This document shows positions 8,314 through 31,997 of a DNA stretch of 32,000 nucleotides, one piece after another. The first letter of the stretch is position 1. Every line of letters starts with the position of its first letter. The position numbers were made by a program, and so were the translations under genes. The stretch is from an uncultured Azospirillum sp. (lineage in GTDB: Bacteria > Pseudomonadota > Alphaproteobacteria > Rickettsiales > UBA3002): the NCBI GenBank assembly GCA_964578965.1, contig CAZOFC010000002.1, positions 4,572 to 36,571 of the forward strand. The letters run 5' to 3'. A model generated the notes under the pieces. The model was not told the origin of the DNA. It did not search any database and saw nothing but the letters and a program-made list of their open reading frames with translations.

Positions 8314-8336
8314 ACCACCTAAAGACCAAAGCAACC

Positions 8337-8359: not shown

Positions 8360-8385
8360 ATGCCTGTAACAAAGGAGAAATCACT

Positions 8386-9471: not shown

Positions 9472-9502
9472 CCCCACTCAACCCAACATTAGGAGAAACA
9501 TT

Positions 9503-9898: not shown

Positions 9899-9907
9899 GG
9901 GGGCATC

Positions 9908-10285: not shown

Positions 10286-10416
10286 TGCTGGCGTACCGCC
10301 TCAGCAAACCACTCTCAGAAATCGAGCAAATGACAACCGCTGAGTTCGCGGAATGGGTCGCGTTTTTTCAACTTCAACAGGAACAGATGGGGAAATCTCA
10401 TGGCCGCATTCGGTAG
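10249..10416 (+). CDS. -1 frame extension giving a G-T-type chaperone fusion (gpT-like segment); could also start independently at ATG 10285 (43 aa)
   Basis: Hand translation of the -1 frame gives K LRSDPIRHCQLMLAYRLSKPLSEIEQMTTAEFAEWVAFFQLQQEQMGKSHGRIR*. LAYRLSKPLSEIEQMTTAEFAEWVAFF parallels lambda gpT LAREFGRPDWRAMLAGMSSTEYADWHRFY (from memory). It is below the ORF-track size cutoff. Confidence 0.6.
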   Translation, partial: KLRSDPIRHCQLMLAYRLSKPLSEIEQMTTAEFAEWVAFFQLQQEQMGKSHGRIR

Positions 10417-12885: not shown

Positions 12886-13745
12886 GAGTGATTTCACCGC
12901 AGCTTGAAGCGCATTTCGGCAGTAACATGACCACGCTTGCCACCTGCTGGAAAATTATCCGGCTGGATGGTGAGGAATTAGGCTTCACCGATCACGACCA
13001 GGTATTGACCGTCGATGGGCTGGATTACGATTCCATCGCCGGGTTCACGCCGACCACGGTGGAAAGCAAATCCAATATGGGCGTGGATAATCTGGAAGTC
13101 GAAGGCCAGACATTTCCCTCCAAAATTACCGAATCCGACCTGTTGGCCGGGATGTATGACTATGCCGAGATTGAGATTTTCACGGTAAATTATGAGGATT
13201 TGAGCCAAGGCAAGCTGGTGGTGAAACGTGGGCGGCTGGGCGAAGTGACGCTCAACCAGCAGCTTTTTACCGCTGAGGTGCGCGGCCTGACGCAGCATTT
13301 AAGCCAGACTATCGGCGAAGTGTATTCGCCATCATGCCGCGCTGTGCTGGGCGATACGCGGTGCAAGAAGTCGCTGACCAGCTTCACCATCACCACGACC
13401 GTCACGGCGGTCACCAATAACCAGACTTTTACCGCATCGGCACTCACGCAGGCGGCGGGGTATTTCACGGGTGGCGAAGTCGAATGGACGAGCGGCAATA
13501 ACGACGGGCGGCGCATGGAGGTGAAGGAATTCGCTTCCGGCCAGCTGGTGTTGGCGCTGCCAATGGGGAAATCCATCCAAGTCGGCGATGGGTTCAAGGT
13601 AATCGCCGGGTGCGACAAAACCCGCGAAACCTGCCGCACCAAGTTCAGCAACATTCTTAATTTCCGGGGAGAGCCGGACGTGCCGGGGGTCGATCAGCTG
13701 CTGATGACCGCAGGCACGATGGATAAGGGCAATCGCAATGGCTAG
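12882..13745 (+). CDS. Tail hub protein, DUF2163 + BR0599-type C-terminal domain (RcGTA g13-like)
   Basis: LATCWKIIRLDGEELGFTDHD..L.VDG..Y and C-terminal CDKT.ETCR.KF.N..NFRGEP.VPG are the hallmark motifs of this family. ATGA overlap upstream. Confidence 0.85.
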   Translation: MRVISPQLEAHFGSNMTTLATCWKIIRLDGEELGFTDHDQVLTVDGLDYDSIAGFTPTTVESKSNMGVDNLEVEGQTFPSKITESDLLAGMYDYAEIEIFTVNYEDLSQGKLVVKRGRLGEVTLNQQLFTAEVRGLTQHLSQTIGEVYSPSCRAVLGDTRCKKSLTSFTITTTVTAVTNNQTFTASALTQAAGYFTGGEVEWTSGNNDGRRMEVKEFASGQLVLALPMGKSIQVGDGFKVIAGCDKTRETCRTKFSNILNFRGEPDVPGVDQLLMTAGTMDKGNRNG

Positions 13746-14223
13746 AGTTTCATCATCGCAAATCGTCGTGCAGGCACGCACATGGCTCGGCACGCGCTAT
13801 CACCATCAAGGGCGGCTTAAGAAATCGGCGGCGGGTCCGGGCGGCGTGGATTGCATCGGCCTGATTGTTGGCGTGGCAGATGAGCTGGGCTTGCAAGATG
13901 GCGCTGGGAATCCGCTCTCGCGTGCGGATGAAACCGATTATTCCATGTACCCGGAGCGTGGGCGGCTGGTGGGCTGCATTGAGAAATACTTGCGCCCCAT
14001 ACCGCTCGATAAAATGTCCGAGGGCGATGTGCTGCTTTTTCGCACCTTCAAAGACCCGCAGCATGTGGCGCTACTTTCCATTTATCCGACGGGTGGGCTT
14101 GGCCTGATTCATTGCAATTCTAGTGCTGGCCGGGTGGTCGAGCAGCCGCTTTCCGACACATGGCGGCGAATGCTGACCCATGCCTACCGTTTCAAAAATA
14201 AACAACTGCAATCCCTGAAATAG
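13738..14223 (+). CDS. NlpC/P60-family peptidase (RcGTA g14-like)
   Basis: ARTWLGTRYHHQGR...GGVDCIGLIVGV contains the catalytic Cys context. A downstream His lies in QHVALL. Conserved position between hub and host-specificity genes. Confidence 0.85.
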   Translation: MARVSSSQIVVQARTWLGTRYHHQGRLKKSAAGPGGVDCIGLIVGVADELGLQDGAGNPLSRADETDYSMYPERGRLVGCIEKYLRPIPLDKMSEGDVLLFRTFKDPQHVALLSIYPTGGLGLIHCNSSAGRVVEQPLSDTWRRMLTHAYRFKNKQLQSLK

Positions 14224-14232
14224 AGCAACCTC

Positions 14233-17200
14233 ATGGCTGATATAGTCCTACCTGTCGTTGGCGGCGTGACTGGCTTTGTGCTTGGTGGTCCGTCCGGCGC
14301 TGTTCTCGGCGCGAATCTCGGCGGCATGGCTGCGGGGATGTTTTTCCCGAAGACTCAGCGCGTGCAGCTGCCAGCACAGGAAGGACCGCGCCTTGCTGAC
14401 CTCCGGGCGCAGGTTTCGACCTACGGCAATATGATTCCCAAGGTTTACGGCACAATGCGGCTGGCCGGGAACGTCATCTGGTCAACGGACATTAAGGAAG
14501 TTCGCACCGAAACCACCAGCACGCAGACTTCCAGCGGTGGCGGTAAAGGTGGTGGCGGCGGTGGCGGCAAAACCACCACGAGCCAAACCACGATCACCTA
14601 TAATTATTTCGTCACACTGGCGATTGCCATTTGCGAGGGTCCGATTGATGAAGTCATCCGCGTATGGGCGGATAGCAAGGTGCTGACGGAAGATGTGCTG
14701 TCGGCCTCCCAAGGCAAATACAACGTGCATTTCGGCGATGAAACACAGGGAGTGGATGACATCATCGCCAAATATCTGCCTGCGGGAACCATTCCCGCCT
14801 ATCGTGGTCGCGCCTATGTGGTGATTGAGGATTTCCCATTGGCCGAATACGGCAACCGCATCCCCAATTTTACGTTTGAGATTCGCCGCACGCTGAAATT
14901 CAGCCCCAGCGTTGAAGAAAAAGTCAAAGACATCGTGATAATTCCGGGTGCTGGCGAGTTCGTCTATGGCACGCAGAACACCACGAAGCAAGATGGCTAT
15001 TTCGCCTATTTCGGCGGGGCATTCACGCCCAGCGGGGAAAAGAAAACCCTCAACATGCACAATTACGATGGCAAGGCGGATGTGCTGGTGGCCATCGACC
15101 AGCTGATAAAGAACCTGCCGAACCTCGAATGGGTGGCGGTGGTGGTGACGTGGTTTGCCACCAGCACCGATGCCGGAGCCTGCACCATCATTCCCAAAGT
15201 GGAGTTCCAAGGCACAACGCAGGTGTTGCCTCAGGATTGGAGCGTGGCCGGTATCAGCCGTGCTTCCGCCTCCGTGGTGCTAAATTTCGGCGATGGGAAA
15301 CCGACTTACGGCGGCACACCCTCCGACCATACGGTGGTGCAAATCTGCGCGGAGCTGAAAGCCCGTGGCCTGAATGTGATGCTCTATCCCATGATTTTTG
15401 TGGATACCATCACGCCGGAGCCTAAGCCTTGGCGCGGTCGCATCATTCCAGCCAATGCCACCGATGCGAATAACTGGTTCACCAAAACAAACGGCTATAA
15501 CGCTTTCATCATGCACTATGCCAATTTGCTGAGTGGCGATGTGGATGCATTCGTGATCGGCTCGGAACTGGTCGGCATGACCGGCTTTACCGATTCGCCG
15601 GGAAGCTATCCCGCTGTTTCCAAGCTGGTGACGCTGGCTGGCAGCGTGAAAGCAGCGATGCCGGGAACCATCATCACCTATGCCGCCGATTGGAGCGAAT
15701 ATCATAGCCGTGGCGGGTGGTTTAACCTCGACCCGCTTTGGGCATCCTCCAATATCGACGTGGTGGGGATTGATAGCTATTTCCCGATTACGCCCGACCT
15801 GCCGCAGGTGCAGATTACCCCGGAGCTTATCAAGGAATACTGGGAAAAAGGCGAAGGCTGGGATTATTACTTCCTCGATTCCGTCGCACGCACCGGCCAG
15901 ACCAGCTATGGCGGCAACGCGGCCTATGCGTGGAAAAACCTCGAATACTGGTGGAAAAACACTCACACCAACCCGAATGCTGTGACGACCGGCTGGACTT
16001 CCAAAATGAAGCCGGTCTGGTTTACGGAGTTCGGTTTCCCCAGCGTGGATGGATGCACCAACCAGCCCAACGTGTTCTATGACCCGACATCGAGCGAGAG
16101 CTTTTTCCCTCGTGCCAGCCGTGGCCGGGTGGATTTTCAGGCGCGGCGCGTGGCACTCGATGCGACGTTGGATTATCTGGAGGAGCGCAGGCTGGAAACC
16201 GGCAATGCCAACCTTGTGCCGCGTCGGTTCGTGTGGACGTGGGATGCGCGTCCGTTTTCCTTCTGGCCTGACCTTGAAAACGTCTGGCAGGATTCCATCC
16301 TTTGGGCGACCGGCCATTGGGTAAACGGCAAGCTGGGTGCATCGACACTGGGTGCGGTGGTGGCGGAACTGTTTCAAGCCGCAGGCCTGACCGCCTCGGA
16401 TTATGACGTGACGCGCCTCACGGCTACGCTGGAGGGGTATATAATCCAGCAGCCCATTACGGTGCGAAATGCCATTGAGCAGCTTACAGCCGCGTTCTTT
16501 TTCGATGTGGTGGAAAGCGATGGCATCCTGAAATGCGTGCCGCGTGGCAATGCCTCGATCAAGAACGTGCCGGAGGATGATTTAATCCCCGGCGGCAAGG
16601 GTGACGCGCAGAGCGTGCTGGAAATCAATTACGCTCAGGAATTGGAACTGCCGCAGCGCGTGAACGTGACCTATATCGACCGGCCTTTCAATTATGACCC
16701 GGTGACGCAGACTTCCCAGCGTCAGGTGGTGAAAGCGGTCGATCAGGTGACTATGAACCTGCCGATTGTGATGGGCGCAACGCAGGCGAAGAAAGTGGCG
16801 GATGTTACGCTTTACGGCACATGGAAGGAGCGCATCAGCTTTTCCCTGAGCCTCCCGCCGAAATATGTGCGGATTGAGCCGACCGACATCATCACGGTGA
16901 ACGTATCGGGCGTGGCGCATGAAATGCGTGTCATCAAAACCGACATGGAAGCCAATGGCATGATGAAACTGAGCGCGGTGGCGGAAGACATCAGTTCGTA
17001 TGATTTCTACTCGCCGCCCGGTGAAACCGGCAGCAACCTCCAGCCGCCCGTGCTAGTGCCGGGGACTCTGGTGCAATTCATTGATGCGCCGCCGCTACCG
17101 GTGGACACAGTGCAGAACCAAGGCTTGTTGCGTATCGGCGTAGCGGCAGATGGTCCGAACTGGAACGGCGCGGCGATTTATCGCTCCGATGACGGTGGCG

Positions 17201-17991
17201 AGGATGGCGGCAACACCTTCAACGTGCTGGCAGGGCTTGATGGGGCGGCAACTTTCGGCGCCATCATTACCGACCTGGCAACGGGCGTGTCTGTAACGTG
17301 GGATGAATTCAGCGAGGTGGAAGTGCTGCTCAGTTCCGGCAGCCTTGCCAGTGTCAGTGAATTGGCTGTTTTCAACGGCGCGAATGCTGCATTGATTGGC
17401 GAGGAACTGGTGCAGTTTCAGAATGCCGTGCTGATCGGCGAGAACACATACCGCCTTTCCCGGCTTTTGCGGGGGCGGCAGGGTACAGAATGGGCGATGG
17501 GGTTACATGACCCCGGCGACCGCTTCGTTCTGCTTTCTCCGGCGCTTTATACGACCGCAATCGCTAACAACCTTATCGGGCGGGAACTATATTATAAAAC
17601 CGTCAGCGTCGGGAACTCGCTGGGCAACACAGACGAGCTTGCCTTCACCTACACCGGCAAAAACCTGAAACCGTTCGCCCCGGTGCATGTTACCGGCGTG
17701 CGCGATGGTTCAGCCAACCTGACCATCAGCTGGGTGCGCCGCTCTCGCGTGGATGCGGAATGGCGCGACGGGGTGGACATCCCGCTGGGTGAAGAATCGG
17801 AACGCTATGAGGTGGAAATCTATAGCGGCCTGACACTCAAGCGAACCCTGACCGCCACCAGCCCAACGGTCGCCTACAGCGCCGCTAATCAAGTGACGGA
17901 TTTCGGTTCGGCGCAAAGCAGCGTGAGCGTGAAAGTCTATCAGCTATCGGCGGTGGTTGGCCGGGGCTACCCGGCAATAGCCAGCGTTTAA
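14233..17991 (+). CDS. Host-specificity / baseplate multidomain protein (RcGTA g15-like, with TIM-barrel glycoside-hydrolase-like central domain)
   Basis: 1252 aa. N-terminal Gly-rich membrane-like segment, GPRL.DL..Q.S.YG..IP.VYGT.R..GN.IW, poly-Gly block, ...GSEL.G.T motif region, and a C-terminal fibronectin-like end. Order and size match GTA-type tails. Confidence 0.9.
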   Translation: MADIVLPVVGGVTGFVLGGPSGAVLGANLGGMAAGMFFPKTQRVQLPAQEGPRLADLRAQVSTYGNMIPKVYGTMRLAGNVIWSTDIKEVRTETTSTQTSSGGGKGGGGGGGKTTTSQTTITYNYFVTLAIAICEGPIDEVIRVWADSKVLTEDVLSASQGKYNVHFGDETQGVDDIIAKYLPAGTIPAYRGRAYVVIEDFPLAEYGNRIPNFTFEIRRTLKFSPSVEEKVKDIVIIPGAGEFVYGTQNTTKQDGYFAYFGGAFTPSGEKKTLNMHNYDGKADVLVAIDQLIKNLPNLEWVAVVVTWFATSTDAGACTIIPKVEFQGTTQVLPQDWSVAGISRASASVVLNFGDGKPTYGGTPSDHTVVQICAELKARGLNVMLYPMIFVDTITPEPKPWRGRIIPANATDANNWFTKTNGYNAFIMHYANLLSGDVDAFVIGSELVGMTGFTDSPGSYPAVSKLVTLAGSVKAAMPGTIITYAADWSEYHSRGGWFNLDPLWASSNIDVVGIDSYFPITPDLPQVQITPELIKEYWEKGEGWDYYFLDSVARTGQTSYGGNAAYAWKNLEYWWKNTHTNPNAVTTGWTSKMKPVWFTEFGFPSVDGCTNQPNVFYDPTSSESFFPRASRGRVDFQARRVALDATLDYLEERRLETGNANLVPRRFVWTWDARPFSFWPDLENVWQDSILWATGHWVNGKLGASTLGAVVAELFQAAGLTASDYDVTRLTATLEGYIIQQPITVRNAIEQLTAAFFFDVVESDGILKCVPRGNASIKNVPEDDLIPGGKGDAQSVLEINYAQELELPQRVNVTYIDRPFNYDPVTQTSQRQVVKAVDQVTMNLPIVMGATQAKKVADVTLYGTWKERISFSLSLPPKYVRIEPTDIITVNVSGVAHEMRVIKTDMEANGMMKLSAVAEDISSYDFYSPPGETGSNLQPPVLVPGTLVQFIDAPPLPVDTVQNQGLLRIGVAADGPNWNGAAIYRSDDGGEDGGNTFNVLAGLDGAATFGAIITDLATGVSVTWDEFSEVEVLLSSGSLASVSELAVFNGANAALIGEELVQFQNAVLIGENTYRLSRLLRGRQGTEWAMGLHDPGDRFVLLSPALYTTAIANNLIGRELYYKTVSVGNSLGNTDELAFTYTGKNLKPFAPVHVTGVRDGSANLTISWVRRSRVDAEWRDGVDIPLGEESERYEVEIYSGLTLKRTLTATSPTVAYSAANQVTDFGSAQSSVSVKVYQLSAVVGRGYPAIASV

Positions 17992-18013
17992 CCCAACTTA
18001 ATCGGAGAATTCT

Positions 18014-18952
18014 ATGCCTCAGACATCACGTCTGGGCTTGCCTTATATTGTCACAAGCCAAGCCCAAAAAGAAGTGACGCACAACGCATCGCTCGACATC
18101 CTCGATGCGCTGCTTCAGGCCGCGATGGTCAGTGTCAGCGTCAACACGCCGCCCGGTTCACCCGTGGCCGGTGATTGCTACATCGTCGGCACATCGCCCA
18201 CGGGCGCATGGGCAAGCCATGCAAAGGCGCTGGCTTATTACACCACCGGCTGGAACTTCATCGCGCCGTGGGAAGGCCTGACCGTATGGGCGAAGGATGC
18301 CAATGCGCTCTATACCTATGATGGCACGAACTGGGGTGTATCGGTTGCCACGCCGACATCGCTGCAAAACCTGTCCATGCTGGGCGTGAACACCACGGCG
18401 GATTCCACGAACAAGCTGGCGGTAGCGAGTGAGGCCATCCTATTTAACCATATCGGCGGCGACCTTCAGATTAAGCTGAACAAGAACGCTGCCGGGAACA
18501 AGGCTGGTTTCCTGTTTCAAACCAACTGGTCGGCGCGTGCGGAATTCGGGCTGCTGGGGGATGACAACTTTACCCTGAAAGTGTCGCCGGATGGTTCGAC
18601 CTTTTATGACTCCCTCAAAATGCTGGCCGGTAGCGGTCGTGCGGCGGTGAAAGCGAATGGCTCCGGCCTGAGCGCGGCTGGCACAACGCAAGGCACGGCC
18701 ACGGTCATCACCAAGCAAACCAACCAGTTCACCACCGTCGCCGCCAGCAGCGGCGCAATCCTGCCTTCGCCGGAGCAAGGGGAATTCATTTTCATCGCTA
18801 ACGCGGGGGCAAATGCCCTGAGTGTTTATCCCGCCTCCGGCCACAGCATCAACGCGCTGGCGAATAATGCCGCGTTCTCGATGGCGGTGGGAAAGAACGC
18901 CCTGTTTTGGGCAGCCACTTCGAGCAAGTGGTACGCGCTCTTAAGTGCCTAA
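18014..18952 (+). CDS. DUF2793-family tail fibre/spike-like protein
   Basis: The N-terminus SRLGLPYIVTSQAQKEVTHNASLDILDAL and GD.YIVG......W......LA.Y..GW.F..P.EG...W match the DUF2793 signature as I remember it. It follows the host-specificity gene. Confidence 0.75.
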   Translation: MPQTSRLGLPYIVTSQAQKEVTHNASLDILDALLQAAMVSVSVNTPPGSPVAGDCYIVGTSPTGAWASHAKALAYYTTGWNFIAPWEGLTVWAKDANALYTYDGTNWGVSVATPTSLQNLSMLGVNTTADSTNKLAVASEAILFNHIGGDLQIKLNKNAAGNKAGFLFQTNWSARAEFGLLGDDNFTLKVSPDGSTFYDSLKMLAGSGRAAVKANGSGLSAAGTTQGTATVITKQTNQFTTVAASSGAILPSPEQGEFIFIANAGANALSVYPASGHSINALANNAAFSMAVGKNALFWAATSSKWYALLSA

Positions 18953-18955
18953 CCC

Positions 18956-18978
18956 AGCCGCCGCAAGGCGGTTTTTTT
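18956..18978 (+). terminator. Rho-independent terminator after the tail module
   Basis: CCGCC-GCAA-GGCGG hairpin (GNRA-type tetraloop, extendable by G-U and A-U pairs) followed by T7, starting 4 nt after the stop codon. Confidence 0.65.
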
Positions 18979-19004
18979 ATGCCTGAACCAAAGGAGAAAA
19001 CGAC

Positions 19005-19232
19005 ATGCCACCCACCGAAGAGAAAGACGTGCAAGCGCAGCTGGCCGTGATGAACACGCAAATCCAAACGCTCACAAAAACCGTGGATGGGTTGGTGGAG
19101 GAAGTGAAGGCGCTCACGGCGCTGGCGAATCAGGGCAAAGGAAGCCTTCGCACGTTGCTGATCGTCGGAGGGCTTTGGACTGGCCTTGTGGCCTTCCTCA
19201 GCTTTGCGGCTGGCAACCTGACTTGGAAATAA
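19005..19232 (+). CDS. Small membrane protein, putative holin or lysis-associated protein
   Basis: 75 aa. N-terminal coiled-coil-like half and a single C-terminal TM (LLIVGGLWTGLVAFLSFAAG). First gene of the lysis cassette, with a strong RBS. No family recognised. Confidence 0.35.
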   Translation: MPPTEEKDVQAQLAVMNTQIQTLTKTVDGLVEEVKALTALANQGKGSLRTLLIVGGLWTGLVAFLSFAAGNLTWK

Positions 19233-19252
19233 CACAACCAATGGAGAATCCT

Positions 19253-19915
19253 ATGACAACGAAAGCAGAACATATCGACACGCTGGCACGCACGCTGTAT
19301 GGCGAGGCCAAACCCCATGACATTCAGGATGCGACCGCCATCGCCTGTGTGGTGATGAACCGGGTGGCGCTCCCGAATTGGCCGGATGACGTAGAATCCG
19401 TGTGCATTCAGCCGTATCAATTCAGCTGCTGGAACACCAGCGACCCGAACCGTGCGCGGATATTCAAGGCCAATGGCGCATGGTTCGATAAATGCGTGCA
19501 GATTGCCATGAAAGCGGTCGATCACCAACTGGTTGACCCCACCAATGCCAGCACGCATTACCACACGCCTGCGGTAAAACCCGCATGGTCGCGGGGCAAG
19601 AAGCCGGTGTATTTCACCAGCGGCCATGTGTTCTTCAACGACATCGATACCAAGCCTCCTGCAAGCGCCAAGGATGCGCTGAACCAGATTAAGCCTATCG
19701 GCAAAACCGATACGATGGTTGCCACCAAGATCGGCGGCGTTGCCAGCGTGGGCATTGGCGCGGTGTCACAGGCCATCGAAACGCTGGAGCCAGCCATGCC
19801 GCTTGCAACGACGCTGGCGCAGGCCGCGCCGTGGGCAATCGTCGCGGTGCTGGCAATGGCGCTGCTTTACATCGCGTGGAGCCGTTACCAAGCCCGGAAG
19901 GAAGGCAAAATATGA
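19253..19915 (+). CDS. Endolysin, SleB-type cell wall hydrolase (Hydrolase_2-like) with a C-terminal transmembrane segment
   Basis: LARTLYGEAKPH...AIACVVMNRV......SVCIQPYQFSCWN is the SleB/CwlJ-type signature. Start chosen at 19253 (GGAGAA RBS 6 nt upstream) rather than 19175, which overlaps the previous gene. C-terminal PWAIVAVLAMALLYIAW. Confidence 0.85.
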   Translation: MTTKAEHIDTLARTLYGEAKPHDIQDATAIACVVMNRVALPNWPDDVESVCIQPYQFSCWNTSDPNRARIFKANGAWFDKCVQIAMKAVDHQLVDPTNASTHYHTPAVKPAWSRGKKPVYFTSGHVFFNDIDTKPPASAKDALNQIKPIGKTDTMVATKIGGVASVGIGAVSQAIETLEPAMPLATTLAQAAPWAIVAVLAMALLYIAWSRYQARKEGKI

Positions 19916-20163
19916 TTGCCACCCTGAAGGCCTTCTTCACCACCAATGCGATGCGTGTGGCCGCGTGGTGCATGGCGGCGCTCTCATTCCTCGGCATTCT
20001 GCTGGCCGCTCGTCGCGCTGGTCGGAATGCCGAGCGAGTGGATGCGCTGGAAAATCAATCCGAAAACGTGAGAAAATCCCATGAAGTCCAAGACAAAAAT
20101 CGTCGCACTCTTGCTGATGGCGACGCTGCTGAACGCCTGCGCGATAAATGGTCGCGTGACTGA
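19912..20163 (+). CDS. i-spanin (Rz-like)
   Basis: 83 aa from ATG 19912 (ATGA overlap with the endolysin stop). N-terminal TM (VAAWCMAALSFLGILLAA) followed by a charged helical periplasmic part. It contains the start of the o-spanin ORF in another frame. Confidence 0.6.
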   Translation: MIATLKAFFTTNAMRVAAWCMAALSFLGILLAARRAGRNAERVDALENQSENVRKSHEVQDKNRRTLADGDAAERLRDKWSRD

Positions 20164-20281: not shown

Positions 20282-20404
20282 GCTTAGAGCTAACTCCTAA
20301 GTGTGCAATATGGCTTTACGTTTCTTTTATAAAAGATACCTACATATAAAACTGCATTTTTATTAAATTTCCTCATGATTAGCTATCTAACATGGAGGAA
20401 TTTT

Positions 20405-20764
20405 ATGCACCACATCAATAAAGAAATGCGCGAATGTATCCAGCTTTGCTGGGAATGCCGTAGTGAATGCCAGGAAATGCTTTTTAGTCACTGCCTAGAA
20501 ATGGGCGGTAAGCATGTTGAAAAAGAACATGTGAAGCTGATGGCCGATTGTATTCAGGCATGCCAGACCGCTGCCGATTTCATGACGCGCGATTCACAGT
20601 TGCATGCTTCCACCTGTGAAGCCTGCGCCGATGTATGCGACGCATGCGCTGAATCATGCGAGCGCATTGGCGGCGAAGAAATGAAACGCTGTGCAGAACT
20701 ATGCCGCCGCTGTGCGGAAAGCTGCCGCGAAATGGCAAAAACCAAACACAAAAAGGCGGCTTAA
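20405..20764 (+). CDS. Four-helix-bundle Cys-rich copper-binding protein (DUF326 / Csp-like), no signal peptide
   Basis: 119 aa from ATG 20405 (GGAGGA RBS). 16 Cys in repeating CxxxC/CxxC spacing on predicted helices (CIQLCWECRSEC, CIQACQ, CEACADVCDACAESC, CAELCRRCAESC). Confidence 0.85.
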   Translation: MHHINKEMRECIQLCWECRSECQEMLFSHCLEMGGKHVEKEHVKLMADCIQACQTAADFMTRDSQLHASTCEACADVCDACAESCERIGGEEMKRCAELCRRCAESCREMAKTKHKKAA

Positions 20765-20765
20765 T

Positions 20766-21326
20766 ATGAAACAACTTCTCACCGTATCCGCGCTGGCTTT
20801 AACTCTAGCACTTTCACCTACTGCTTATGCCGCAAATGACATGAGCAGCGCTTCTAAAACCACACAGGCCGCAAAAGCGCCATATGACGTGCAATTTCTC
20901 GATACGATGAGCGAGCACCACCGCGATGGTATTAAGATGATGGAGCTGGCGGTAGATAAGGCACAAAGCGCCGATATCAAACAAATGGCACAAAAAGGCA
21001 TTGATGACCAAACCAAGGAAATTGATGAGCTAAAGTCCATGCGTAATTCAGATGCGTCCGAAGCCGTTAATATGAAACTTCCGGGCATGATGCCGAAAGC
21101 TAAAATGGAACAGGATATGGCGAAGCTGGAAAAAGCGTCCGGCAGCGACTTTGATAAACATTTTCTGCAAACGATGATTAAGCACCACGGCGGCGCGGTG
21201 AAAATGTCGGATGACGCGATGGCTAAGGCAAAACGTGATAACGTAAAAACCAAGGCAAAGGAAATTCACGATAAACAAAAGAGCGAAATTTCCGCTATGG
21301 AAAATATGCTTAAAGGAATGAAATGA
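20766..21326 (+). CDS. Periplasmic DUF305-family protein
   Basis: Start at 20766 gives a signal peptide MKQLLTVSALALTLALSPTAYA. There are two DUF305 half-repeats (FLDTMSEHHRDGIKMM and FLQTMIKHHGGAVKMS). Confidence 0.85.
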   Translation: MKQLLTVSALALTLALSPTAYAANDMSSASKTTQAAKAPYDVQFLDTMSEHHRDGIKMMELAVDKAQSADIKQMAQKGIDDQTKEIDELKSMRNSDASEAVNMKLPGMMPKAKMEQDMAKLEKASGSDFDKHFLQTMIKHHGGAVKMSDDAMAKAKRDNVKTKAKEIHDKQKSEISAMENMLKGMK

Positions 21327-21805
21327 AGCATTCCCACGGCGAACATAAACACCACACCATGAAATCGTCCTATAAGCAGCTGGCGGTGATGACGGTTGTG
21401 CATCTTGCCGTCATGTATGTGGCGATGTTTGCGATGATTAATCGCGGTTCGTATTTCTATAATAACACCAATATGTTTTACATGGCGGTGCTGATGGCCG
21501 CGCCGGTTACGTTATTCATGCTTACTTCGATGTGGCATATGTACCCGAACCAGAAGGCAAATATCATTATCGGCATTGCTTTTGCGCTACTTACCATCGC
21601 TTCGTATGGCGCTATCCGGGCGCAAGTTGGCGTGGGTGATAAGCAATTTCTAAGGGCGATGATTCCGCACCATTCCGGCGCAATCCTGATGTGCCGCGAG
21701 GCTAATATCACCGATCAGGAAATCAGCAGCCTGTGCAAAGAAATTATTGACGGTCAGCAACGCGAAATCGACCAGATGGAAGCAATATTTCAGCGATTGA
21801 ATTAA
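21323..21805 (+). CDS. Membrane protein with His-rich N-terminus and a single C-terminal DUF305-like half domain
   Basis: MKHSHGEHKHH, three hydrophobic segments, then FLRAMIPHHSGAILMC....I...Q..EI..ME. ATGA overlap with the upstream gene. Confidence 0.7.
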   Translation: MKHSHGEHKHHTMKSSYKQLAVMTVVHLAVMYVAMFAMINRGSYFYNNTNMFYMAVLMAAPVTLFMLTSMWHMYPNQKANIIIGIAFALLTIASYGAIRAQVGVGDKQFLRAMIPHHSGAILMCREANITDQEISSLCKEIIDGQQREIDQMEAIFQRLN

Positions 21806-22116
21806 TGCTTCATACTTTCATGCTTTTTCTGCATCGACTCCTTTTCAGATTTAGCACAAATTTCGCATTCCTCACCTTCTTTCATTGAAGACATGCCGCC
21901 CTCTTTCATTTTACCCATGCACATTTTGCACATACCGTCCTTGCAGCATTTGCACTCACCATCTTTGCAGCAATCGGCACATTTTCCGTGTTTGCAACAT
22001 TCACATTTTTCACAGCATGGCATTTTCATGTCCATACCAGACATTGAACCACCTTGCGTGTTGGCGCAGGCGGCAACTAAAACCAAGAGTATGACGGGGA
22101 TTATTTTCTTAAACAT
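21802..22116 (-). CDS. Exported Cys/Met-rich lipoprotein, metallothionein-like (no family recognised)
   Basis: 104 aa. Sec/lipoprotein signal MFKKIIPVILLVLVAA|C. The mature part has 15 further Cys, 13 of them within a 33-residue core (CCEKCECCKHGKCADCCKDGECKCCKDGMCKMC), about a dozen Met, and a His/Lys-rich tail. GAGG RBS. Last gene of the merR operon. Confidence 0.7.
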   Translation of the reverse strand: MFKKIIPVILLVLVAACANTQGGSMSGMDMKMPCCEKCECCKHGKCADCCKDGECKCCKDGMCKMCMGKMKEGGMSSMKEGEECEICAKSEKESMQKKHESMKH

Positions 22117-22137
22117 GGCAGCCTCGTTTTTTAGGGG

Positions 22138-22890
22138 TTAAGTGGAATACATCGCCAACAGCATCAATACTGACATGCCGACCATTCCCAAATCCTCCAC
22201 CAGCGTGATGGTGGACATGGGCAGGTTCAGCACCGTGCCAAGGCAGGCGCAGCGAATCTTACGTTTTTCGTGCAGGGCTTGGATAACGCCCAAACTGCTA
22301 AAACCCATCAATGCGATGGAAAAATAAAGAGCGTAAAGTAGCTCATACTGGAAAAGGAATGCCAAGCCTAAGCCAAGCTCAAGGAAGGGATAAACATATC
22401 CATAACTCTTCCAGCGTTTTGCAAGCAAATCATAGGTGGCATAAGCATCACGGAAGCCATTCAGATCCAGCAATTTGAAGAATGAAAATACGATAAAGAA
22501 TCCCGCCATGAAATGCAGCATCCACCCATGCAACCCGAAACCGCCTTTCAACGACACAATCGAAATTAGGCCAATGATGAGCAGCAGTGGATAATAGGTT
22601 GCCAGCCAACTTTTCTGCTCTGCTTCCTTAATGATCGGAACTGTAATCGGCTGGGGCGCTGCCAATTCTTCTTTTAGAGTATAGTCGCCTGCCGTGATGA
22701 TAGCAGCATTAAGGGCGGCCAAATCAGGCAGCGCATCCCCCCGCACTATGGCACGCGGCGGATTGAGTGTGACCTGCACATCATTCACCAGACCTTTTAG
22801 CGCGTCCGTGATTTTCTGCACGCAGGATTGGCAGTGCATACCTTGAATTTGATAGGATTTCCTAGTCACAACAATTTTTTCCTCCACCAC
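22138..22890 (-). CDS. N-terminal heavy-metal-associated (HMA) domain fused to a MauE/DoxX-like polytopic membrane domain
   Basis: YQIQGMHCQSCVQKITDAL is the MxCxxC ferredoxin-like HMA motif. It is followed by 4-5 TM segments and a membrane-proximal RCACLG Cys pair, as I remember for MauE-like proteins. 29-nt overlap with the merR-family gene. Confidence 0.75.
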   Translation of the reverse strand: MVEEKIVVTRKSYQIQGMHCQSCVQKITDALKGLVNDVQVTLNPPRAIVRGDALPDLAALNAAIITAGDYTLKEELAAPQPITVPIIKEAEQKSWLATYYPLLLIIGLISIVSLKGGFGLHGWMLHFMAGFFIVFSFFKLLDLNGFRDAYATYDLLAKRWKSYGYVYPFLELGLGLAFLFQYELLYALYFSIALMGFSSLGVIQALHEKRKIRCACLGTVLNLPMSTITLVEDLGMVGMSVLMLLAMYST

Positions 22891-23302
22891 GGGTGATATA
22901 ATCTAGGATCGGGCAATCGGCGCTGGAGGTGTCATCGCCGGGACATTCTTTCGTAAGTACGAGCAGTGCTTTCTTAACTTCCTTAAGTTCACATATTTTT
23001 TGTTCCGCTTCCGCGATCTTACCAGTGGTATGTTTCAGCACTTCCGCACAAGTTGCTTTATCAGAACGATTCAAAGTGAGCAGCTGGCGGATTTCTTCGA
23101 GTGTGAAGTTGAGTGTTTTTGCACCTTTTATGAATTGCAGGATACGCTCGGCATCTTCGCCATAAATCCGATAGCCAGCCCCAGAACGGCTGGCCGCTTT
23201 AATCAGCCCCATTTTTTCGTAATAGCGGAGCGTATCGGTGCTGATACCAGTACGCTCCGCCAGTTTACCAATCGTCAGAAGTTGAATCGTTTTTTGCCTC
23301 AT
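22862..23302 (-). CDS. MerR-family heavy-metal-responsive transcriptional regulator
   Basis: 146 aa from ATG 23302. HTH LTIGKLAERTGISTDTLRYYEKMGLI. Putative metal ligands are C in DKATCAEV, the loop CPGDDTSSADCP, and C-terminal NCC. The longer ORF start at 23341 would sit upstream of the promoter. Confidence 0.9.
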   Translation of the reverse strand: MRQKTIQLLTIGKLAERTGISTDTLRYYEKMGLIKAASRSGAGYRIYGEDAERILQFIKGAKTLNFTLEEIRQLLTLNRSDKATCAEVLKHTTGKIAEAEQKICELKEVKKALLVLTKECPGDDTSSADCPILDYITRGGGKNCCD

Positions 23303-23309
23303 GACATTC

Positions 23310-23341
23310 AATCTACACCTTGGAGCGTACTCCAAGGTCAA
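23310..23341 (-). promoter_or_regulatory. MerR-type promoter/operator: TTGACC - 20-bp spacer containing a perfect 9-4-9 palindrome - TAGATT
   Basis: The minus strand reads TTGACCTTGGAGTACGCTCCAAGGTGTAGATT. The palindrome ACCTTGGAG/CTCCAAGGT is at 23317-23338. The over-long spacer is the MerR-family hallmark. The -10 ends 7 nt before the merR ATG. Confidence 0.7.
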
Positions 23342-23345
23342 GGGG

Positions 23346-24215
23346 TTATTTAACCGTTACGCCAAATGGCGCAAATATATCCTTTCCATCAATCCGCACC
23401 TGCGCGAATAGCTTTACGAAACCAGCCGTTTTTGGCTCGATATGAAATTCCAATTTAGGACCACCGCGCTCCGTGTCGCTGGTTGGTTCTTTGCCCATCG
23501 GGTGGATATGCAGGACGGAATTATAATCCTCGGTGAATCCCACAACATGCGCGAATGCACCCATCACCGGCTCTAATTGCGTGAATGGTTTTCCGTCTTT
23601 AGTGACGGTGATATTGCCCATTACTGCTGCGCCAGCCTTTGGTTCGCTATCCAGCGCAAGCGTGAAGGTATAACCATCCACCATGCTGGTCATGGACATG
23701 GTTTTATTGATCGCGGCGTTGTTCTTGGCCACGTTCCCCATATCCGCCATCACATATTCCTGCTTGCCGGTGGCAACCGGAATCATGTCCGCCCATACGC
23801 GGTAGCTGTCATTTTTCTTTGGCGTGAAATCAAACACGAATTCACCCGCATTCTTGCCAGCGACAGGGTGAATATGGTGATAATCAGTGAGTGACGGGTC
23901 AACGATCAGCAAATGCAGCTTTTTGGTGTGCGCTTCTTTAAGGTCATCAAAAGAGATAGGCTTGCCATCTGCCGTAGCATTCAGCTTCACTACCACTTGT
24001 GTGATCTTACCCGCTTGCAGTGGTGTTACAGGCTCCAAAGCAAGTTTTACGGTATTTTTAGCCGCCATTTCATCATGTGCGCCGCCATGCCCCATAGCTT
24101 CATGGGAAGTAGCAGTTGGCTGGGCTTGATCGTGACCGCTATGATCGCCAGCAGCATAGGCAATAGTACCGGTGGTTAAAATGGTGCTGATAAATAATGC
24201 GTGAAATAGTTTCAT
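23346..24215 (-). CDS. Secreted protein with a His-rich N-terminus and two tandem ~110-aa beta-type domains, each carrying an HIHP motif; function unknown
   Basis: Signal peptide MKLFHALFISTILTTGTIAYA. His-rich stretch GDHSGHDQ...HEAMGHGGAHDE. Internal repeat: ..DGKPISF..L...H.KKLHLLIVDPSLTDYHHIHPV versus ..DGKPFTQLEPVMGAFAHVVGFTEDYNSVLHIHPM. Confidence 0.6.
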   Translation of the reverse strand: MKLFHALFISTILTTGTIAYAAGDHSGHDQAQPTATSHEAMGHGGAHDEMAAKNTVKLALEPVTPLQAGKITQVVVKLNATADGKPISFDDLKEAHTKKLHLLIVDPSLTDYHHIHPVAGKNAGEFVFDFTPKKNDSYRVWADMIPVATGKQEYVMADMGNVAKNNAAINKTMSMTSMVDGYTFTLALDSEPKAGAAVMGNITVTKDGKPFTQLEPVMGAFAHVVGFTEDYNSVLHIHPMGKEPTSDTERGGPKLEFHIEPKTAGFVKLFAQVRIDGKDIFAPFGVTVK

Positions 24216-24227
24216 GATGTTACCTTC

Positions 24228-24674
24228 TTATTTTACGTTAGATTCAACAAGTTTCAGCGCACCTTCTGCTTTTTTGAATTCGGCTTTGGTTTGCTCTGCA
24301 TCTTTGGCATCGGCAGCACTGTGTACCTTGCCCAGTTGGGTACTCAGTTGTTTAAGCGAAGCCTCAAGGCGGGTTTTCTTATCGCCTTCCAATGCAGACT
24401 TTTCTTTCAGCGCTTTAATGCTGGCTTCGATCTTTTCAATTTCATCGTGCATGGCATCGTGCTTATTTTCGCTAATTTGCGTGCCGATAGTTTTCATGCC
24501 AGCCTGAATTTCTGTCAGCGCACCCTGTGCATCCGCTGCGACAGAAACAGTTTTTGGAGCAGCGGCATGGGCTTCTGTATGTTGCCCTTCATGTTTTTCA
24601 TCGCCATGCGCCAGTGCCGGTTGCTGTAAGCCAGACAAGGCCAGTATCGCGGTAGTAAGCAGTATTTTCTTCAT
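24228..24674 (-). CDS. Secreted all-helical His-rich small protein, function unknown
   Basis: Signal peptide ...QQPALA|HGDEKHEGQHTEAH, then Lys/Glu/Ala-rich predicted helices. It is 15 nt downstream of the RND gene and 12 nt upstream of the next gene, so it is probably co-transcribed. Confidence 0.55.
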   Translation of the reverse strand: MKKILLTTAILALSGLQQPALAHGDEKHEGQHTEAHAAAPKTVSVAADAQGALTEIQAGMKTIGTQISENKHDAMHDEIEKIEASIKALKEKSALEGDKKTRLEASLKQLSTQLGKVHSAADAKDAEQTKAEFKKAEGALKLVESNVK

Positions 24675-27815: not shown

Positions 27816-28782
27816 TTATTCCTTATGCTCGTCTTTATGTTCATCTTTTTTAGGCTCGGCAGACTTAGCGAATTGCAGTTGGTAATTCCCCACGGTCACC
27901 ACTTCTTCATCAGGGAACACGCCTTCCAGCACCTCGCGGTCACCGCCAAACTTTGCACCCAGCTTTACGCTGCGCCGCTCGAAATCATTGCCGCTGCGGA
28001 CAAATACGAATTGTTCTCCGCTTTCACCTAAAATTGCTTTCACTGGCACGGCTAGAATATCAGCGGGTGTAGTGATTTCAATCGACAGTACCACCTGCAT
28101 ATTCGCCAATAATTTACGGTCAGGATTACCCACCAGCGCATAGACATTGAAGGTACGGCTTCCACGATCATACGCGCCATCCATGCGTTGTACTTTGCCA
28201 AGCAAGGAATCGCCTCCGAGCAAGCTGCTGGTGACGCGCACATTTTGCCCCCACCTGAATCTTGGTAACATCCGGCGTTTCATACATCACGCCGCGCACC
28301 AGCACTTCACTGGATTCGCCCACTTCCATCAAGGCCGCTTCTGGCGTGACGGATTGACCCAGCACTACGCTTTGCTTGGTGACGTAACCTGTGATTGGGG
28401 ACGGAATCGAAACCGGCGAGCTGCCCACAAAAATAGGCTGAATGGTGAGCAAGCTCTGGCCTTTATTCACTTTCTCTCCCACCTTAATGTGAATCTCCGA
28501 TACGCGGCCAGCGGCGCGGGAAGTCACAATGGCTTGGCGTTCCGGTAGGAATTCGACAATCCCATTCACATCCACCGATGTGGCGCGTGGAGCAATCGCT
28601 GCTTTTACTGTCTGGATGCCAAGGTTGTTGATCGCGGTATCGGAAAGCGTCACCGTGCTAACAACGCCCGACCCTCCCTCTGTTCCGGGGGCTTCGGCGT
28701 GATCTTCCCCTTCATGTGCAAATGCCTGATTAAACAGGCCAAGCCCTACGATAAGGATGACTGTGGCTATCGTTTTCTTCAT
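27816..28782 (-). pseudogene. RND periplasmic adaptor (MFP, CzcB/CusB-class) interrupted by a +1 frameshift in a G5 (C5 on +) run at 28248-28252
   Basis: ORFs 28168..28782 and 27816..28283 are two halves of one adaptor. Frame A reads ..DVTKIQVG|AKCARH, and frame B reads ..RFRWG|QNVRVTSSLLGG. Deleting one G gives a continuous ..DVTKIQVGQNVRVTSS.. of about 321 aa. Confidence 0.8.
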
Positions 28783-30058: not shown

Positions 30059-30613
30059 TCAGCGTTTTTTGAAGATTTTTTCTTCCAACAGCTTACGGGC
30101 GCGGTAAACACGGGTTTCAACGGTTTTTGCCGTTACACCAAGCAATTCCGCACATTCGTCCTGCGTGCGATCTTCCAGCGCAAAAAGTATTAACGCAGTC
30201 TTAAGTTTATGCGGCAGGGATTCGAGGGACTGGTTAATATGCCGAACTGCCTGATTGGACTGCGCGATAGTTTCGGGGTCAGGCGCGGCATCTGTAAAAT
30301 CAAAACCTGAATCTTCATCATCTATTGAAAAGAACTGCGCCAACTTCTTCTTACGACCATGATCGCGGCAGAGATTTAGTGCAATCTGGAAAAGCCACGT
30401 CGAGAATTTATATTCAGGCTTGTAGGTGATGGCAGAGAAATAGAGCTTTGTGAAAGTTTCCTGCACCAAATCATAGGCCACGTCTTCATCGCCAACATAA
30501 CGGCGTATAAACGCAAAAAGGCGGTGCTTATACCGCGCCATCAGCTCATTGAGTGCGGGATTCTCTCCGCCCTTCAATTTCTCAATTAGTTCCTGATCTG
30601 TGCATTCCTTCAT
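30059..30613 (-). CDS. ECF-type RNA polymerase sigma factor (CnrH-like by context)
   Basis: 184 aa. Region 2 (YDLVQETFTKLY, FSTWLFQIALNLCRDHGRK) and region 4 (ALEDRTQDECAELLGVTAKTVETRVYRARKLL). Confidence 0.9.
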   Translation of the reverse strand: MKECTDQELIEKLKGGENPALNELMARYKHRLFAFIRRYVGDEDVAYDLVQETFTKLYFSAITYKPEYKFSTWLFQIALNLCRDHGRKKKLAQFFSIDDEDSGFDFTDAAPDPETIAQSNQAVRHINQSLESLPHKLKTALILFALEDRTQDECAELLGVTAKTVETRVYRARKLLEEKIFKKR

Positions 30614-30624
30614 GCCGCCGCGCT

Positions 30625-31062
30625 TTATGGGTTATGAGTGAGCGCGTCAGTCGTAAGGCTATTCAACTTCTTTCGCTGTTCTGGTGTCAGCACACTGTGC
30701 ATTTCAAACAAATGCTCAAGCGTCACTTTTTGTAGTTCACCCATTGCAGTATGGATTTTATCAACTGCTTGCTGCACGCGAGGAGAGTAGTTACCATCCT
30801 CATTAATGGCTGTAGCCAGTTCACCGTTAGCTTGATGGATTTCTGCCTCCAACGCCTTCTTGCGATCTGCGAATTTGGCCTCAATAGGCTCCAGCTTTGT
30901 GTCTTGCTCTGCGGTGAGGTTTAACTGTTCATGCAGCCATTGATGCGGATCGTGTGTTGTTTCACGATGCCCCATAAACGAATTGCCCACCATCCAGCAC
31001 GCGCTGAAAGCTAAAGCAGCGACGATTAGGCTGAGGCGGAGATCACGGTACAATCGTTTCAT
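30625..31062 (-). CDS. cnrX: Membrane-anchored periplasmic heavy-metal sensor, CnrX-like (Spy/CpxP-fold family)
   Basis: N-terminal TM. HQWLHE, ANGELATAI, SPRV, and GELQKVTLEHLFEMHSVLTPEQR parallel my memory of C. metallidurans CnrX ([42 protein letters not shown]). Confidence 0.8.
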   Translation of the reverse strand: MKRLYRDLRLSLIVAALAFSACWMVGNSFMGHRETTHDPHQWLHEQLNLTAEQDTKLEPIEAKFADRKKALEAEIHQANGELATAINEDGNYSPRVQQAVDKIHTAMGELQKVTLEHLFEMHSVLTPEQRKKLNSLTTDALTHNP

Positions 31063-31391
31063 AAACGCTCATAATTCGGGGTGATGGAAGCCAAAGCAAT
31101 CACCTTCGGCTTAAAAACTTTGAAGTTCAGCATTTCCGCCGCATCTGGCGCGGGGGGATGCATCGTGCCAAAACCCACCATGATACCAAGCACGGCGGCT
31201 GCCATCACAGGTGAAAAACGGTGCTGTGCCGGGAAAATACTGGCAAGCAATCCCTCAAGGAAACCTACCGGCTGCTCAGATTTTTCCGCCACAATCCGCG
31301 CCCAAACATCGCTTTCCAGATGTTTCAGACGGCCATTGATTGGCTCTGAGTTTCTAAGCAATGCCAATACATTATCAATTCTTTTGGTCAT
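31059..31391 (-). CDS. Single-pass membrane protein, putative anti-sigma factor (positional equivalent of CnrY)
   Basis: 110 aa with one TM (FSPVMAAAVLGIMVGFG). ATGA overlap with the sensor gene. First gene behind the upstream copy of the ECF-type promoter. No sequence family recognised. Confidence 0.45.
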   Translation of the reverse strand: MTKRIDNVLALLRNSEPINGRLKHLESDVWARIVAEKSEQPVGFLEGLLASIFPAQHRFSPVMAAAVLGIMVGFGTMHPPAPDAAEMLNFKVFKPKVIALASITPNYERL

Positions 31392-31416
31392 AAATACCTC
31401 GCTCCTATCTATACCC

Positions 31417-31442
31417 TAATACGAACGAGTTATCCATATCCC
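31417..31442 (-). promoter_or_regulatory. Candidate ECF-sigma-dependent promoter in front of the anti-sigma/sensor/sigma genes (GGGATA-N13-CGTATTA)
   Basis: The minus strand reads AAGGGATAtggataactcgttCGTATTAgggta, ending 25 nt upstream of ATG 31391. It has the same hexamer, heptamer and spacing as 30023-30048. Confidence 0.6.
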
Positions 31443-31997
31443 TTAAAAATCTTCGTCCAATTCTTTCTTAGATAATCTTACTATCCGCCATGATCCAGAA
31501 ACGGCCAACCATCCAAGGATAGCTGCAACAATAATATCCGGCCAGATGGTGCTGGAGGCGAATACGCCAGCGGCGGCGATCATCACGGCGATATTGCCAA
31601 TGGCATCGTTGCGGCTGCATATCCATACGGATTCGCGGTTGCTATCGCCGCCACGGTATTTGTAGAGTAGCACAGCACAACCGATATTGACCGCCAGCGC
31701 AATCACACTGATAGCCGCCATGATGAGGGGTTTTGGCAGTTCAGGCTGTAGGGCGTGGTGGAGTGTTTCAAACGCCACCCACAGCCCTACCAAGCCCAAG
31801 GAAATGCCTTTGAACATCGAAGCCTTTGCGCGTTGGCGGAGCGATTGATCCAGCACATAGAGGCTGATGCCGTAATTGGCGGCATCGGAGAGAAAATCTG
31901 CGCTGTTGGCCAGCAGTGAAACAGAATGCGCGGCGTAGCTTGCTATCATCTGCACCACAAACATCACCGCGTTAGCAATCAAGCATATCCACAGCAC
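31443..31997 (-). CDS. Cation diffusion facilitator (CDF) family transporter, membrane domain only; N-terminus lies beyond the window
   Basis: SLLANSADFLSDAANY (TM2 DxxxD) and WICSRNDAIGNIAVM (TM5) follow the CDF pattern. The ORF is open to the window edge. The protein ends about 15 aa after the last TM, so there is no cytoplasmic C-terminal domain. Confidence 0.8.
   Translation of the reverse strand: MLWICLIANAVMFVVQMIASYAAHSVSLLANSADFLSDAANYGISLYVLDQSLRQRAKASMFKGISLGLVGLWVAFETLHHALQPELPKPLIMAAISVIALAVNIGCAVLLYKYRGGDSNRESVWICSRNDAIGNIAVMIAAAGVFASSTIWPDIIVAAILGWLAVSGSWRIVRLSKKELDEDF

Follow-up and report, generated by a model that had tools for sequence, protein, structure and literature searches.

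We analysed a 32,000-nucleotide stretch of DNA (the window) from an uncultured Azospirillum sp. (contig CAZOFC010000002.1) that contains a compact operon on its minus strand, comprising the genes for a MerR-family regulator, for an inner-membrane protein that joins an HMA domain to a MauE-like domain (HMA-MauE), and for a small cysteine-rich lipoprotein (Table 1). The original prediction for this locus had described a textbook MerR-type promoter, three tightly linked genes behind it and a metal-handling context; the promoter and all three genes lie where it had placed them, and the metal context is supported both by the surrounding genes and by related loci.

Table 1. Features of the operon and loci of the related Grx-MauE family (positions in the window unless a locus is named).
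Feature	Position	Strand	Basis
MerR-type promoter/operator	23310..23341	(-)	read straight from sequence
merR-family metal sensor, 146 aa	22862..23302	(-)	Pfam, solved-structure alignment
HMA-MauE inner-membrane protein, 243 aa	22138..22869 (alternative start 22890)	(-)	Pfam, AlphaFold2, alignment
CAC (CXC) motif, residues 207-209, loop before last helix	22243..22251	(-)	invariant in three alignments
Cys/Met/Lys-rich lipoprotein, 104 aa	21802..22116	(-)	sequence, family alignment
Metallothionein-like core of lipoprotein, residues 34-66	21919-22017	(-)	Cys count
Grx-MauE paralogue loci	L106:4635-5366, L107:4902-5669, L123, L124, L125, L119		

The promoter combines a -35 element (TTGACC, 23341-23336) and a -10 element (TAGATT, 23315-23310) with a 20-nt spacer, inside which lies a perfect 9-bp inverted repeat, ACCTTGGAG-TACG-CTCCAAGGT (23338-23317). 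This is the arrangement of a promoter activated by a MerR-type protein, which carries a dyad operator within a spacer of 19-20 bp; the spacer of PzntA is likewise 20 bp. The 32-nt site occurs once in the window, has no match in 100 shuffles with three mismatches allowed, and its operator is kept upstream of all orthologous merR genes recovered. At one of these related loci (L027), the operator bears symmetric substitutions in both arms of the dyad (CCCTAGAG/CTCTAGGG), which argues that it is a functional dimer-binding site. A standard promoter scan with 16-18-nt spacers does not detect the merR promoter, as expected given the longer spacer of MerR-type promoters, and an Rfam search of the window returned no match.

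The first gene of the operon encodes a MerR-family sensor, as had been proposed, with helix-turn-helix and dimerisation domains recognised by Pfam (MerR_1 PF13411, 2.8e-16; PF00376, 4.5e-16; MerR-DNA-bind PF09278, 1.2e-14). Its closest solved relative is Bacillus megaterium MerR (4ua1, 7.8e-24), followed by CueR. Three conserved cysteines, one in the sequence ATCAEV and two in a C-x9-C loop (CPGDDTSSADCPI), are the equivalents of the metal ligands C79, C114 and C123 and are present in six orthologues; all three align with the Hg-binding cysteines of the B. megaterium protein. The regulator thus shares with MerR, ZntR and CueR a helix-turn-helix followed by a coiled coil, the cysteine triad and a dyad operator within a 20-bp spacer. 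Its loop, CPGDD..ADCPI, is nearly the same as that of CueR (CPGDDSADCPI), but spans nine residues between the cysteines rather than the seven of CueR or the eight of MerR, and, unlike CueR, it has a cysteine at the position of CueR Ser77. Scores against the NCBIfam models for ZntR, CueR, MerR and CadR lie close together, and all fall below the equivalog cut-offs (ZntR 119.7 against 143, CueR 114.5 against 147.4; the further score/cut-off pairs of this test of the ZntR, CueR, MerR and CadR/PbrR models are 112.1/167.95, 104.9/150.85 and 90.7/151.45). We also considered a C-terminal pair of adjacent cysteines as a metal ligand and set it aside, as the pair is present only where merR overlaps the start of the HMA-MauE gene.

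Two further features separate this regulator from known MerR sensors: its gene heads the operon, and its message is probably leaderless. The merR start codon (ATG 23302) lies 7 nt past the -10 element and has no Shine-Dalgarno sequence before it, and a spacing of 7-9 nt recurs in related loci. Together, the cysteine triad, the operator and its conservation make control of the operon by a metal-loaded MerR protein a well-supported reading of the sequence.

For the second gene the most likely start is GTG 22869, which has GGAGG just 5' of it and is the start called in related loci (L001-L006). With this start, 8 nt are shared with merR; the 29 nt originally reported apply only to the longest open reading frame, which begins at GTG 22890. 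The reading of the product as an MxCxxC HMA domain fused to a MauE-like membrane domain with an RCAC sequence (encoded at 22254-22243) is confirmed by Pfam, which finds HMA (PF00403, 2.8e-9) and MauE (PF07291, 1e-16; 61.9 bits, with the cut-off at 27, over profile positions 10-127 of 128), and by an AlphaFold2 model (pLDDT 86.6) in which a disordered linker joins an HMA fold to five transmembrane helices. The HMA domain occupies residues 1-67, carries the metal-binding-type motif MHCQSC and adopts a beta-alpha-beta-beta-alpha-beta fold in the model. A Foldseek search of the PDB matches this part alone, with the N-terminal domain of ZntA (1mwy) at the top and a probability of 1.00 to ZntA, CopZ and MerP domains; the same search gave no match to the membrane part.

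MauE was not assigned a biochemical role, disulfide formation in the manner of DsbB, before 2026, in a preprint that describes canonical MauE as a quinone-linked, periplasm-facing disulfide-forming enzyme (bioRxiv 10.64898/2026.03.05.709764, March 2026). In that work, two canonical MauE proteins of four helices each substitute for E. coli DsbB through a CXC active site, usually followed by Phe-Gly, and a conserved Lys in helix 1 and a conserved Glu in helix 2 flank a predicted quinone pocket; HMA fusions are not discussed. The window protein resembles these enzymes in having CXC-x-Gly between core helices 3 and 4 and a Lys and a Glu in core helices 1 and 2. Among 27 homologues (52-90% identity), C13, C16, K132, E164, C207, C209, G211, P217, M218 and E225 are invariant, and the sequence CAC-L-G is kept in all 27, with Leu where canonical MauE has Phe; K132 and E164 are equated with the Lys/Glu pair of the preprint by helix order. 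Because K132, E164 and CAC-L-G are all invariant, the redox machinery of HMA-MauE looks intact.

The window protein departs from canonical MauE in its HMA domain, in the Leu that follows the CXC motif, and in an added N-terminal helix: the Pfam MauE match begins in the second helix of the model, which marks the first as an addition. It also differs in being under the control of a metal regulator and in its operon, which contains no mauA, mauD or DsbA-like neighbour; the mauA, mauB and mauD families had no match among the window proteins scanned. The extra helix bears on orientation. Four helices lie between the HMA domain and the CXC motif, so both must sit on the same side of the membrane whatever the topology. 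That side is predicted to be the cytoplasm, away from the lipoprotein, because positively charged residues concentrate in the corresponding loops (mean Lys+Arg of 3.1 in loop 2-3 and 3.4 in loop 4-5, as against 0.6 in loop 1-2 and 0.4 in loop 3-4). In agreement with this assignment, no signal peptide was found in any HMA-fused or related Grx-fused member examined, and a Bernardetia plasmid carries a split form in which a soluble, signal-less double-HMA gene adjoins a separate MauE gene and a multicopper oxidase gene. The MauE core of the window protein is therefore predicted to be inverted relative to that of canonical MauE.

The third gene follows 21 nt further on and encodes, as originally described, a predicted exported lipoprotein with exactly 13 cysteines in a 33-residue core. 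Residues 1-17 consist of MFKK, a hydrophobic stretch and the lipobox VAAC, with Ala16 and Cys17 invariant in 27 of 27 homologues; the mature protein of 88 residues contains 16 Cys, 12 Met and 16 Lys. Alignment of the family shows insertions and deletions of CCKDGxCK-type units, and Met-rich stretches flank the Cys core. Variable numbers of CCKDGxC units and Met-rich flanks are typical of metal-thiolate proteins. The AlphaFold2 model (pLDDT 58) predicts no stable apo fold and no four-helix bundle. The family is small (40 clusters by single-sequence search, 72 by profile) and has no family annotation or informative name: we found no Pfam match even at E = 0.1, no NCBIfam or PHROG match, and no sequence or profile match to SmtA/BmtA or MymT metallothioneins, to Csp proteins or to bufferins. 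The Cys, Met and Lys content, the variable CCKDGxC units and the lack of a predicted stable apo fold make a role for the lipoprotein as a thiolate metal sink in the envelope plausible.

As a small, very Cys-rich protein under putative metal control, the lipoprotein resembles SmtA/BmtA, MymT, Csp1 and the bufferins, and like Csp1 and the bufferins it is predicted to be exported; unlike these known metal sinks, it is predicted to be lipid-anchored and not to form a four-helix bundle. The pairing of an exported Cys-rich product with a membrane protein of the MauE/DoxX clan also recalls bufferin operons (PMC11626156), but the window operon lacks the MNIO and DUF2063 modification genes. No DUF692 enzyme, DUF2063 partner or DUF2282-type precursor was present in the three-gene operon or among the scanned neighbours, and a bufferin-type system of ribosomally made, modified peptides was dropped in the absence of an MNIO enzyme. 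Neither effector had been described before. We found no paper about fusions of HMA to MauE, nor about any metallothionein-like lipoprotein that is exported, and the profile and literature searches placed neither product in a characterised resistance family, in keeping with the earlier statement that the combination was not recognised as a described resistance determinant.

To place the operon in a wider setting, we collected lipoprotein loci by metagenome, viral and exact-protein look-ups, which left about 24 contexts after removal of duplicates. The full merR-HMA-MauE-lipoprotein trio occurs in five of them (the window group, L010, L026, L117/118 and L121, the last beside a relaxase gene), with 21-24 nt between the HMA-MauE and lipoprotein genes. 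In seven others the lipoprotein gene follows merR directly (L009, L012, L013/14, L016, L019, L023 and L115/116), and in one a DUF4396 membrane protein (PF14342, 4.7e-35; motif HCLIGCVIGE; L112:5499-5984) replaces HMA-MauE between merR and the lipoprotein. The locus with the symmetric operator substitutions, L027, has merR and HMA-MauE and no lipoprotein. All four arrangements stand under the same operator, and this conserved metal-sensor site precedes the lipoprotein in 13 of the roughly 24 contexts. Elsewhere the lipoprotein is found apart from MerR: in L011, L015, L017 and L024 it ends operons of copA (a multicopper oxidase gene), copB and cupredoxin/CusF genes, with a YHS/TRASH-like gene just upstream in L015 and L017, and in six contexts (L020/21, L022 and L108-L111) it lies behind a small secreted CopL-like protein with the pattern CC..C.KC..RPPK. 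This CopL-like protein (L020:3625-3960; L108-L111) is 110-125 aa long, its gene lies 40-50 nt upstream of distant lipoprotein homologues, and it matches CopL_fam weakly (E = 0.006) and is missed by gene callers in several contigs.

The recurrence of the trio, together with the swaps and losses of its parts, identifies it as a real mobile cassette whose parts are interchangeable cargo of one regulator. A survey for conserved co-occurrence of the three genes, proposed along with the original prediction, thus gives a divided answer: the trio does recur in five contexts, while the seven direct merR-lipoprotein arrangements, the DUF4396 swap, L027 and the MerR-less copies show that its members are separable.

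The same conclusion is reached from the side of the membrane protein. A scan of species-representative genomes gave at least 573 confirmed relatives of HMA-MauE, of which 80 loci were kept (from Alphaproteobacteria, Opitutae, Methylophilaceae, Bacteroidota, Planctomycetota, Ignavibacteria and one metagenome-assembled Patescibacteria genome) and 70 were analysed by neighbour-gene clustering. The lipoprotein gene is present in a single one of the 70 (L026) and absent from the other 69; with lipoproteins also found in cop clusters that have no MerR, the idea of one obligate three-gene system is not supported. Relatives of HMA-MauE, often placed right behind a regulator gene, lie in islands of CusA/CzcA RND, HMBD, DUF3347 and P-type ATPase genes in Alphaproteobacteria, Bacteroidota and Planctomycetota. 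Among the Bacteroidota loci, 21 have the gene for an AraC-type regulator with an N-terminal MxCxxC immediately upstream of HMA-MauE and 28 have it no more than a few genes away, and genes for HYC_CC_PP, HMBD-repeat, DUF3347, CusA/CzcA RND or P-type ATPase proteins lie downstream (L048-L105; for example L083:4346-4912); in Planctomycetota the HMA-MauE gene comes after RND adaptor (MFP) and pump genes. A blastn search of the operon against plasmids, and PHROG and viral-contig searches for HMA-MauE, gave no match.

A tblastn search against plasmids uncovered a paralogous family, annotated 'glutaredoxin', in which a monothiol Grx-like (CPxG) N-domain sits on the same five-helix body (Grx-MauE; Table 1). 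Its carriers are marine and soil plasmids, among them Alteromonas pAlt83_a, Phaeobacter pP88_b and plasmids of Paracoccus and Picosynechococcus. Grx-MauE shares with the window protein the five helices, the motif KCAC..N.P...E and a setting of DUF305, cop and MerR/CsoR genes, and differs in having the CPxG domain in place of HMA and in overall sequence (27-31% identity). Its neighbours include DUF305, copA/copB, cueR/ATPase and CsoR-type or MerR-type regulator genes, with a divergent MerR-type regulator gene alongside the Picosynechococcus paralogue. DUF305 genes repeatedly adjoin HMA- and Grx-MauE genes in several phyla (L029, L077, L121 and L124). The widespread HMA-MauE family is more interesting than the trio itself.

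As to the metal, Cu(I) or Ag(I) is the most likely, with divalent ions of the Zn/Cd/Hg type as possible alternatives, and we lean to copper. This leaning follows from the occurrence of the lipoprotein in cop clusters, its Met-rich flanks, the CueR-like loop of the regulator, the neighbours of the operon in the window and the ATPase of one related locus. The neighbours (20375-21805), convergent to the operon, are genes for a cytosolic Csp3-like Cys-rich four-helix protein and for two DUF305 (CopM-like) proteins. In the related locus (L115), the gene order is merR, lipoprotein, DUF2933 and a P1B-type ATPase with the motifs CPC, N-x6-YN-x4-P and MALSS (M-x2-SS), which we take to mark Cu(I) pumps under the Argüello classification. 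A gene for a CDF transporter at the edge of the window was counted in favour of divalent ions. A mercury import system was considered and dropped: no merA match was found among the window proteins scanned, there is no homology to MerT or MerC, and the mer transport profile MerTP_fusion scores 19.3 against a cut-off of 180, with the match confined to the HMA stretch.

Based on these data, we hold with moderate confidence that the operon serves in soft-metal stress, with its two effectors working separately on the two faces of the inner membrane. A metal-loaded, three-Cys MerR protein would switch on the 20-bp-spaced promoter, producing a probably leaderless transcript that encodes the activator itself and two effectors acting independently of one another. 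One of these, HMA-MauE, would be a MauE-type membrane enzyme whose added N-terminal helix flips the core, so that the CXC motif and the CxxC of the HMA domain both point toward the cytoplasm. There it most likely keeps quinone-linked thiol chemistry and acts on its own HMA domain through metal-thiolate or dithiol reactions, for example by oxidative stripping or hand-over of bound metal, or else by oxidation of Cu(I) or gating of activity, rather than maturing the lipoprotein. The other effector, the lipoprotein, would be exported to the envelope, where its metallothionein-like Cys/Met core could buffer a thiophilic metal. In this account the gene content, the operator with its conservation, the conserved domains and motifs and the pattern of co-occurrence are observed, and the membrane topology, the metal, its binding by the lipoprotein and all catalytic steps are inferred.

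Several points weigh against this account. The indications of metal identity diverge, with gene neighbours pointing to copper while other signals point elsewhere: the cysteine at the CueR Ser77 position and the PzntA-like 20-bp spacer indicate divalent ions, and the RND adaptor and outer-membrane genes of the window weakly resemble the IhpAB divalent exporter. In the oxidising periplasm, a protein with 16 cysteines could simply form disulfides instead of binding metal. What a thiol oxidase facing the cytoplasm would be good for is not obvious, and quinols are unable to reduce disulfides. The HMA-MauE genes of Methylophilaceae and Opitutae, moreover, lie among housekeeping genes with no regulator, a setting that suggests a role beyond resistance. 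Finally, copper protection by bufferin operons does not require their DoxX gene (PMC11626156).

An alternative is that the two effectors form an integrated system, in which a periplasm-facing HMA-MauE serves the lipoprotein as a dedicated redox partner or metal loader and sets the thiol/disulfide state of its 15 free cysteines with quinone as electron sink, much as MauE does for methylamine dehydrogenase's multi-disulfide small subunit. The original prediction had offered control of the thiol state of the envelope protein as one option, and this option gains a biochemical basis from the finding that canonical MauE is periplasm-facing and DsbB-like. The tight spacing of the two genes and their travelling together in five genomic backgrounds, one beside a relaxase gene, fit such a partnership, as does the frequent occurrence of exported Cys-containing metal proteins (HYC_CC_PP, HMBD) after HMA-MauE in Bacteroidota. 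The predicted cytoplasmic placement of the CXC motif and HMA domain does not: the charge bias is about 7:1 in favour of a cytoplasmic CXC, the N-terminal HMA domain has no signal peptide, and the split Bernardetia form has a soluble, signal-less HMA partner. Nor do the seven merR-lipoprotein contexts that lack HMA-MauE, the context with DUF4396 instead, the cop-cluster and CopL-linked lipoproteins without HMA-MauE, or the HMA-MauE loci without lipoprotein. Given these patterns of swap and loss and the predicted topology, a dedicated partnership is unlikely, and we consider the integrated system as a whole distinctly improbable. A periplasmic reductant conduit of the DsbD/CcdA kind was dropped, since the preprint makes the case for MauE as an oxidase and the topology predicted here would not suit such a conduit.

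HMA-MauE might instead move metal across the membrane without ATP, passing it from the CxxC of the HMA domain to the CAC motif at the membrane edge, as an HMA domain feeds the CPC motif of a P1B-type ATPase, and on past Met218, Glu225 and Glu164 to the periplasm, to supply the RND pump or the lipoprotein. ZntA and CopA do combine a cytoplasmic HMA domain at the N-terminus with a membrane Cys-x-Cys, but the likeness is one of functional analogy only: HMA-MauE lacks actuator, phosphorylation and nucleotide-binding domains, and its membrane part is not homologous to theirs. The HMA domain and the CAC motif share one side of the membrane in any topology, invariant soft or acidic residues are present in the last helix (P217, M218, T220, T222 and E225) and helix 3 (E164), and HMA-MauE genes lie repeatedly beside HME-RND pump genes, sometimes with no P-type ATPase in view. 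Yet no energy-coupling element is visible, and the MauE/DoxX clan is not known to include an ion transporter. K132, E164 and CXC-x-Gly may moreover be the quinone and catalytic residues of the preprint, an equation made by helix order, in which case transport is not needed to explain their conservation. On balance we think a translocator unlikely. Less probable still is that the lipoprotein is a disulfide-knotted surface cargo of a prophage or mobile element, serving for instance in exclusion or surface modification, with its link to MerR secondary; we regard this as very unlikely. In the window and in L009, L112, L113 and L117 the cassette does abut a prophage-like block at its lysis/tail end, the lipoprotein and CopL-like genes lie between two tail genes in L020-22, three IMG/VR contigs carry the lipoprotein, and its AlphaFold2 model is of low confidence. 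Against such a role, the protein has no PHROG match, the metal-sensor operator precedes it in 13 of its roughly 24 contexts, it occurs elsewhere in cop operons or beside Cu ATPases, and its variable CCKDGxC units and Met-rich flanks are those of metal-thiolate proteins.

Returning to the soft-metal stress operon with two independent effectors, we note that MerR-controlled metal operons are routine, and that it is the two cargo genes that are unstudied. A broader and more tentative proposal, possible but doubtful in our view, joins two claims: that HMA-MauE and Grx-MauE together form an inverted, cytoplasm-facing MauE branch coupling the quinone pool to metal-thiolate chemistry, and that the lipoprotein is the first envelope-anchored bacterial metallothionein. 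Such a branch might strip metal oxidatively from chaperone cysteines, or might act as a Cu(I) oxidase linked to the respiratory chain. If real, it would constitute a widespread, unstudied arm of bacterial copper and soft-metal homeostasis, and the combination of a metal-binding partner domain with an apparent inversion would connect the quinone pool with thiol chemistry and metal stress in a concrete way that experiments can address. For its part, the lipoprotein would extend metallothionein-type buffering to the bacterial envelope and could serve for metal capture on cell surfaces.

Beyond the operon, the first part of the window (1-20000) is prophage-like, with genes for a gpA terminase, lambda-type portal, capsid, tape measure, a hub resembling that of gene transfer agents (GTA), a host-specificity protein, DUF2793 and lysozyme. 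The metal island starts directly after this block, and the same junction is seen in related contigs. At the far end (30059-31997), the island of metal and envelope-stress functions is completed by genes for an ECF sigma factor, for a periplasmic protein resembling Spy/CpxP and, in truncated form, for a CDF transporter. The RND adaptor (27816-28782) is present as two overlapping open reading frames in different frames, which match the N- and C-terminal halves of an adaptor and suggest a frameshift or sequencing error; in L001 the homologue was called as a single protein of 321 aa. The interval from the RND pump to merR (23346-24674) holds genes for two conserved His-rich proteins, 148 and 289 aa long, that are secreted and belong to no Pfam or NCBIfam family; they are fused as one protein in L029, and a relative adjoins an RND pump gene in Chryseobacterium.

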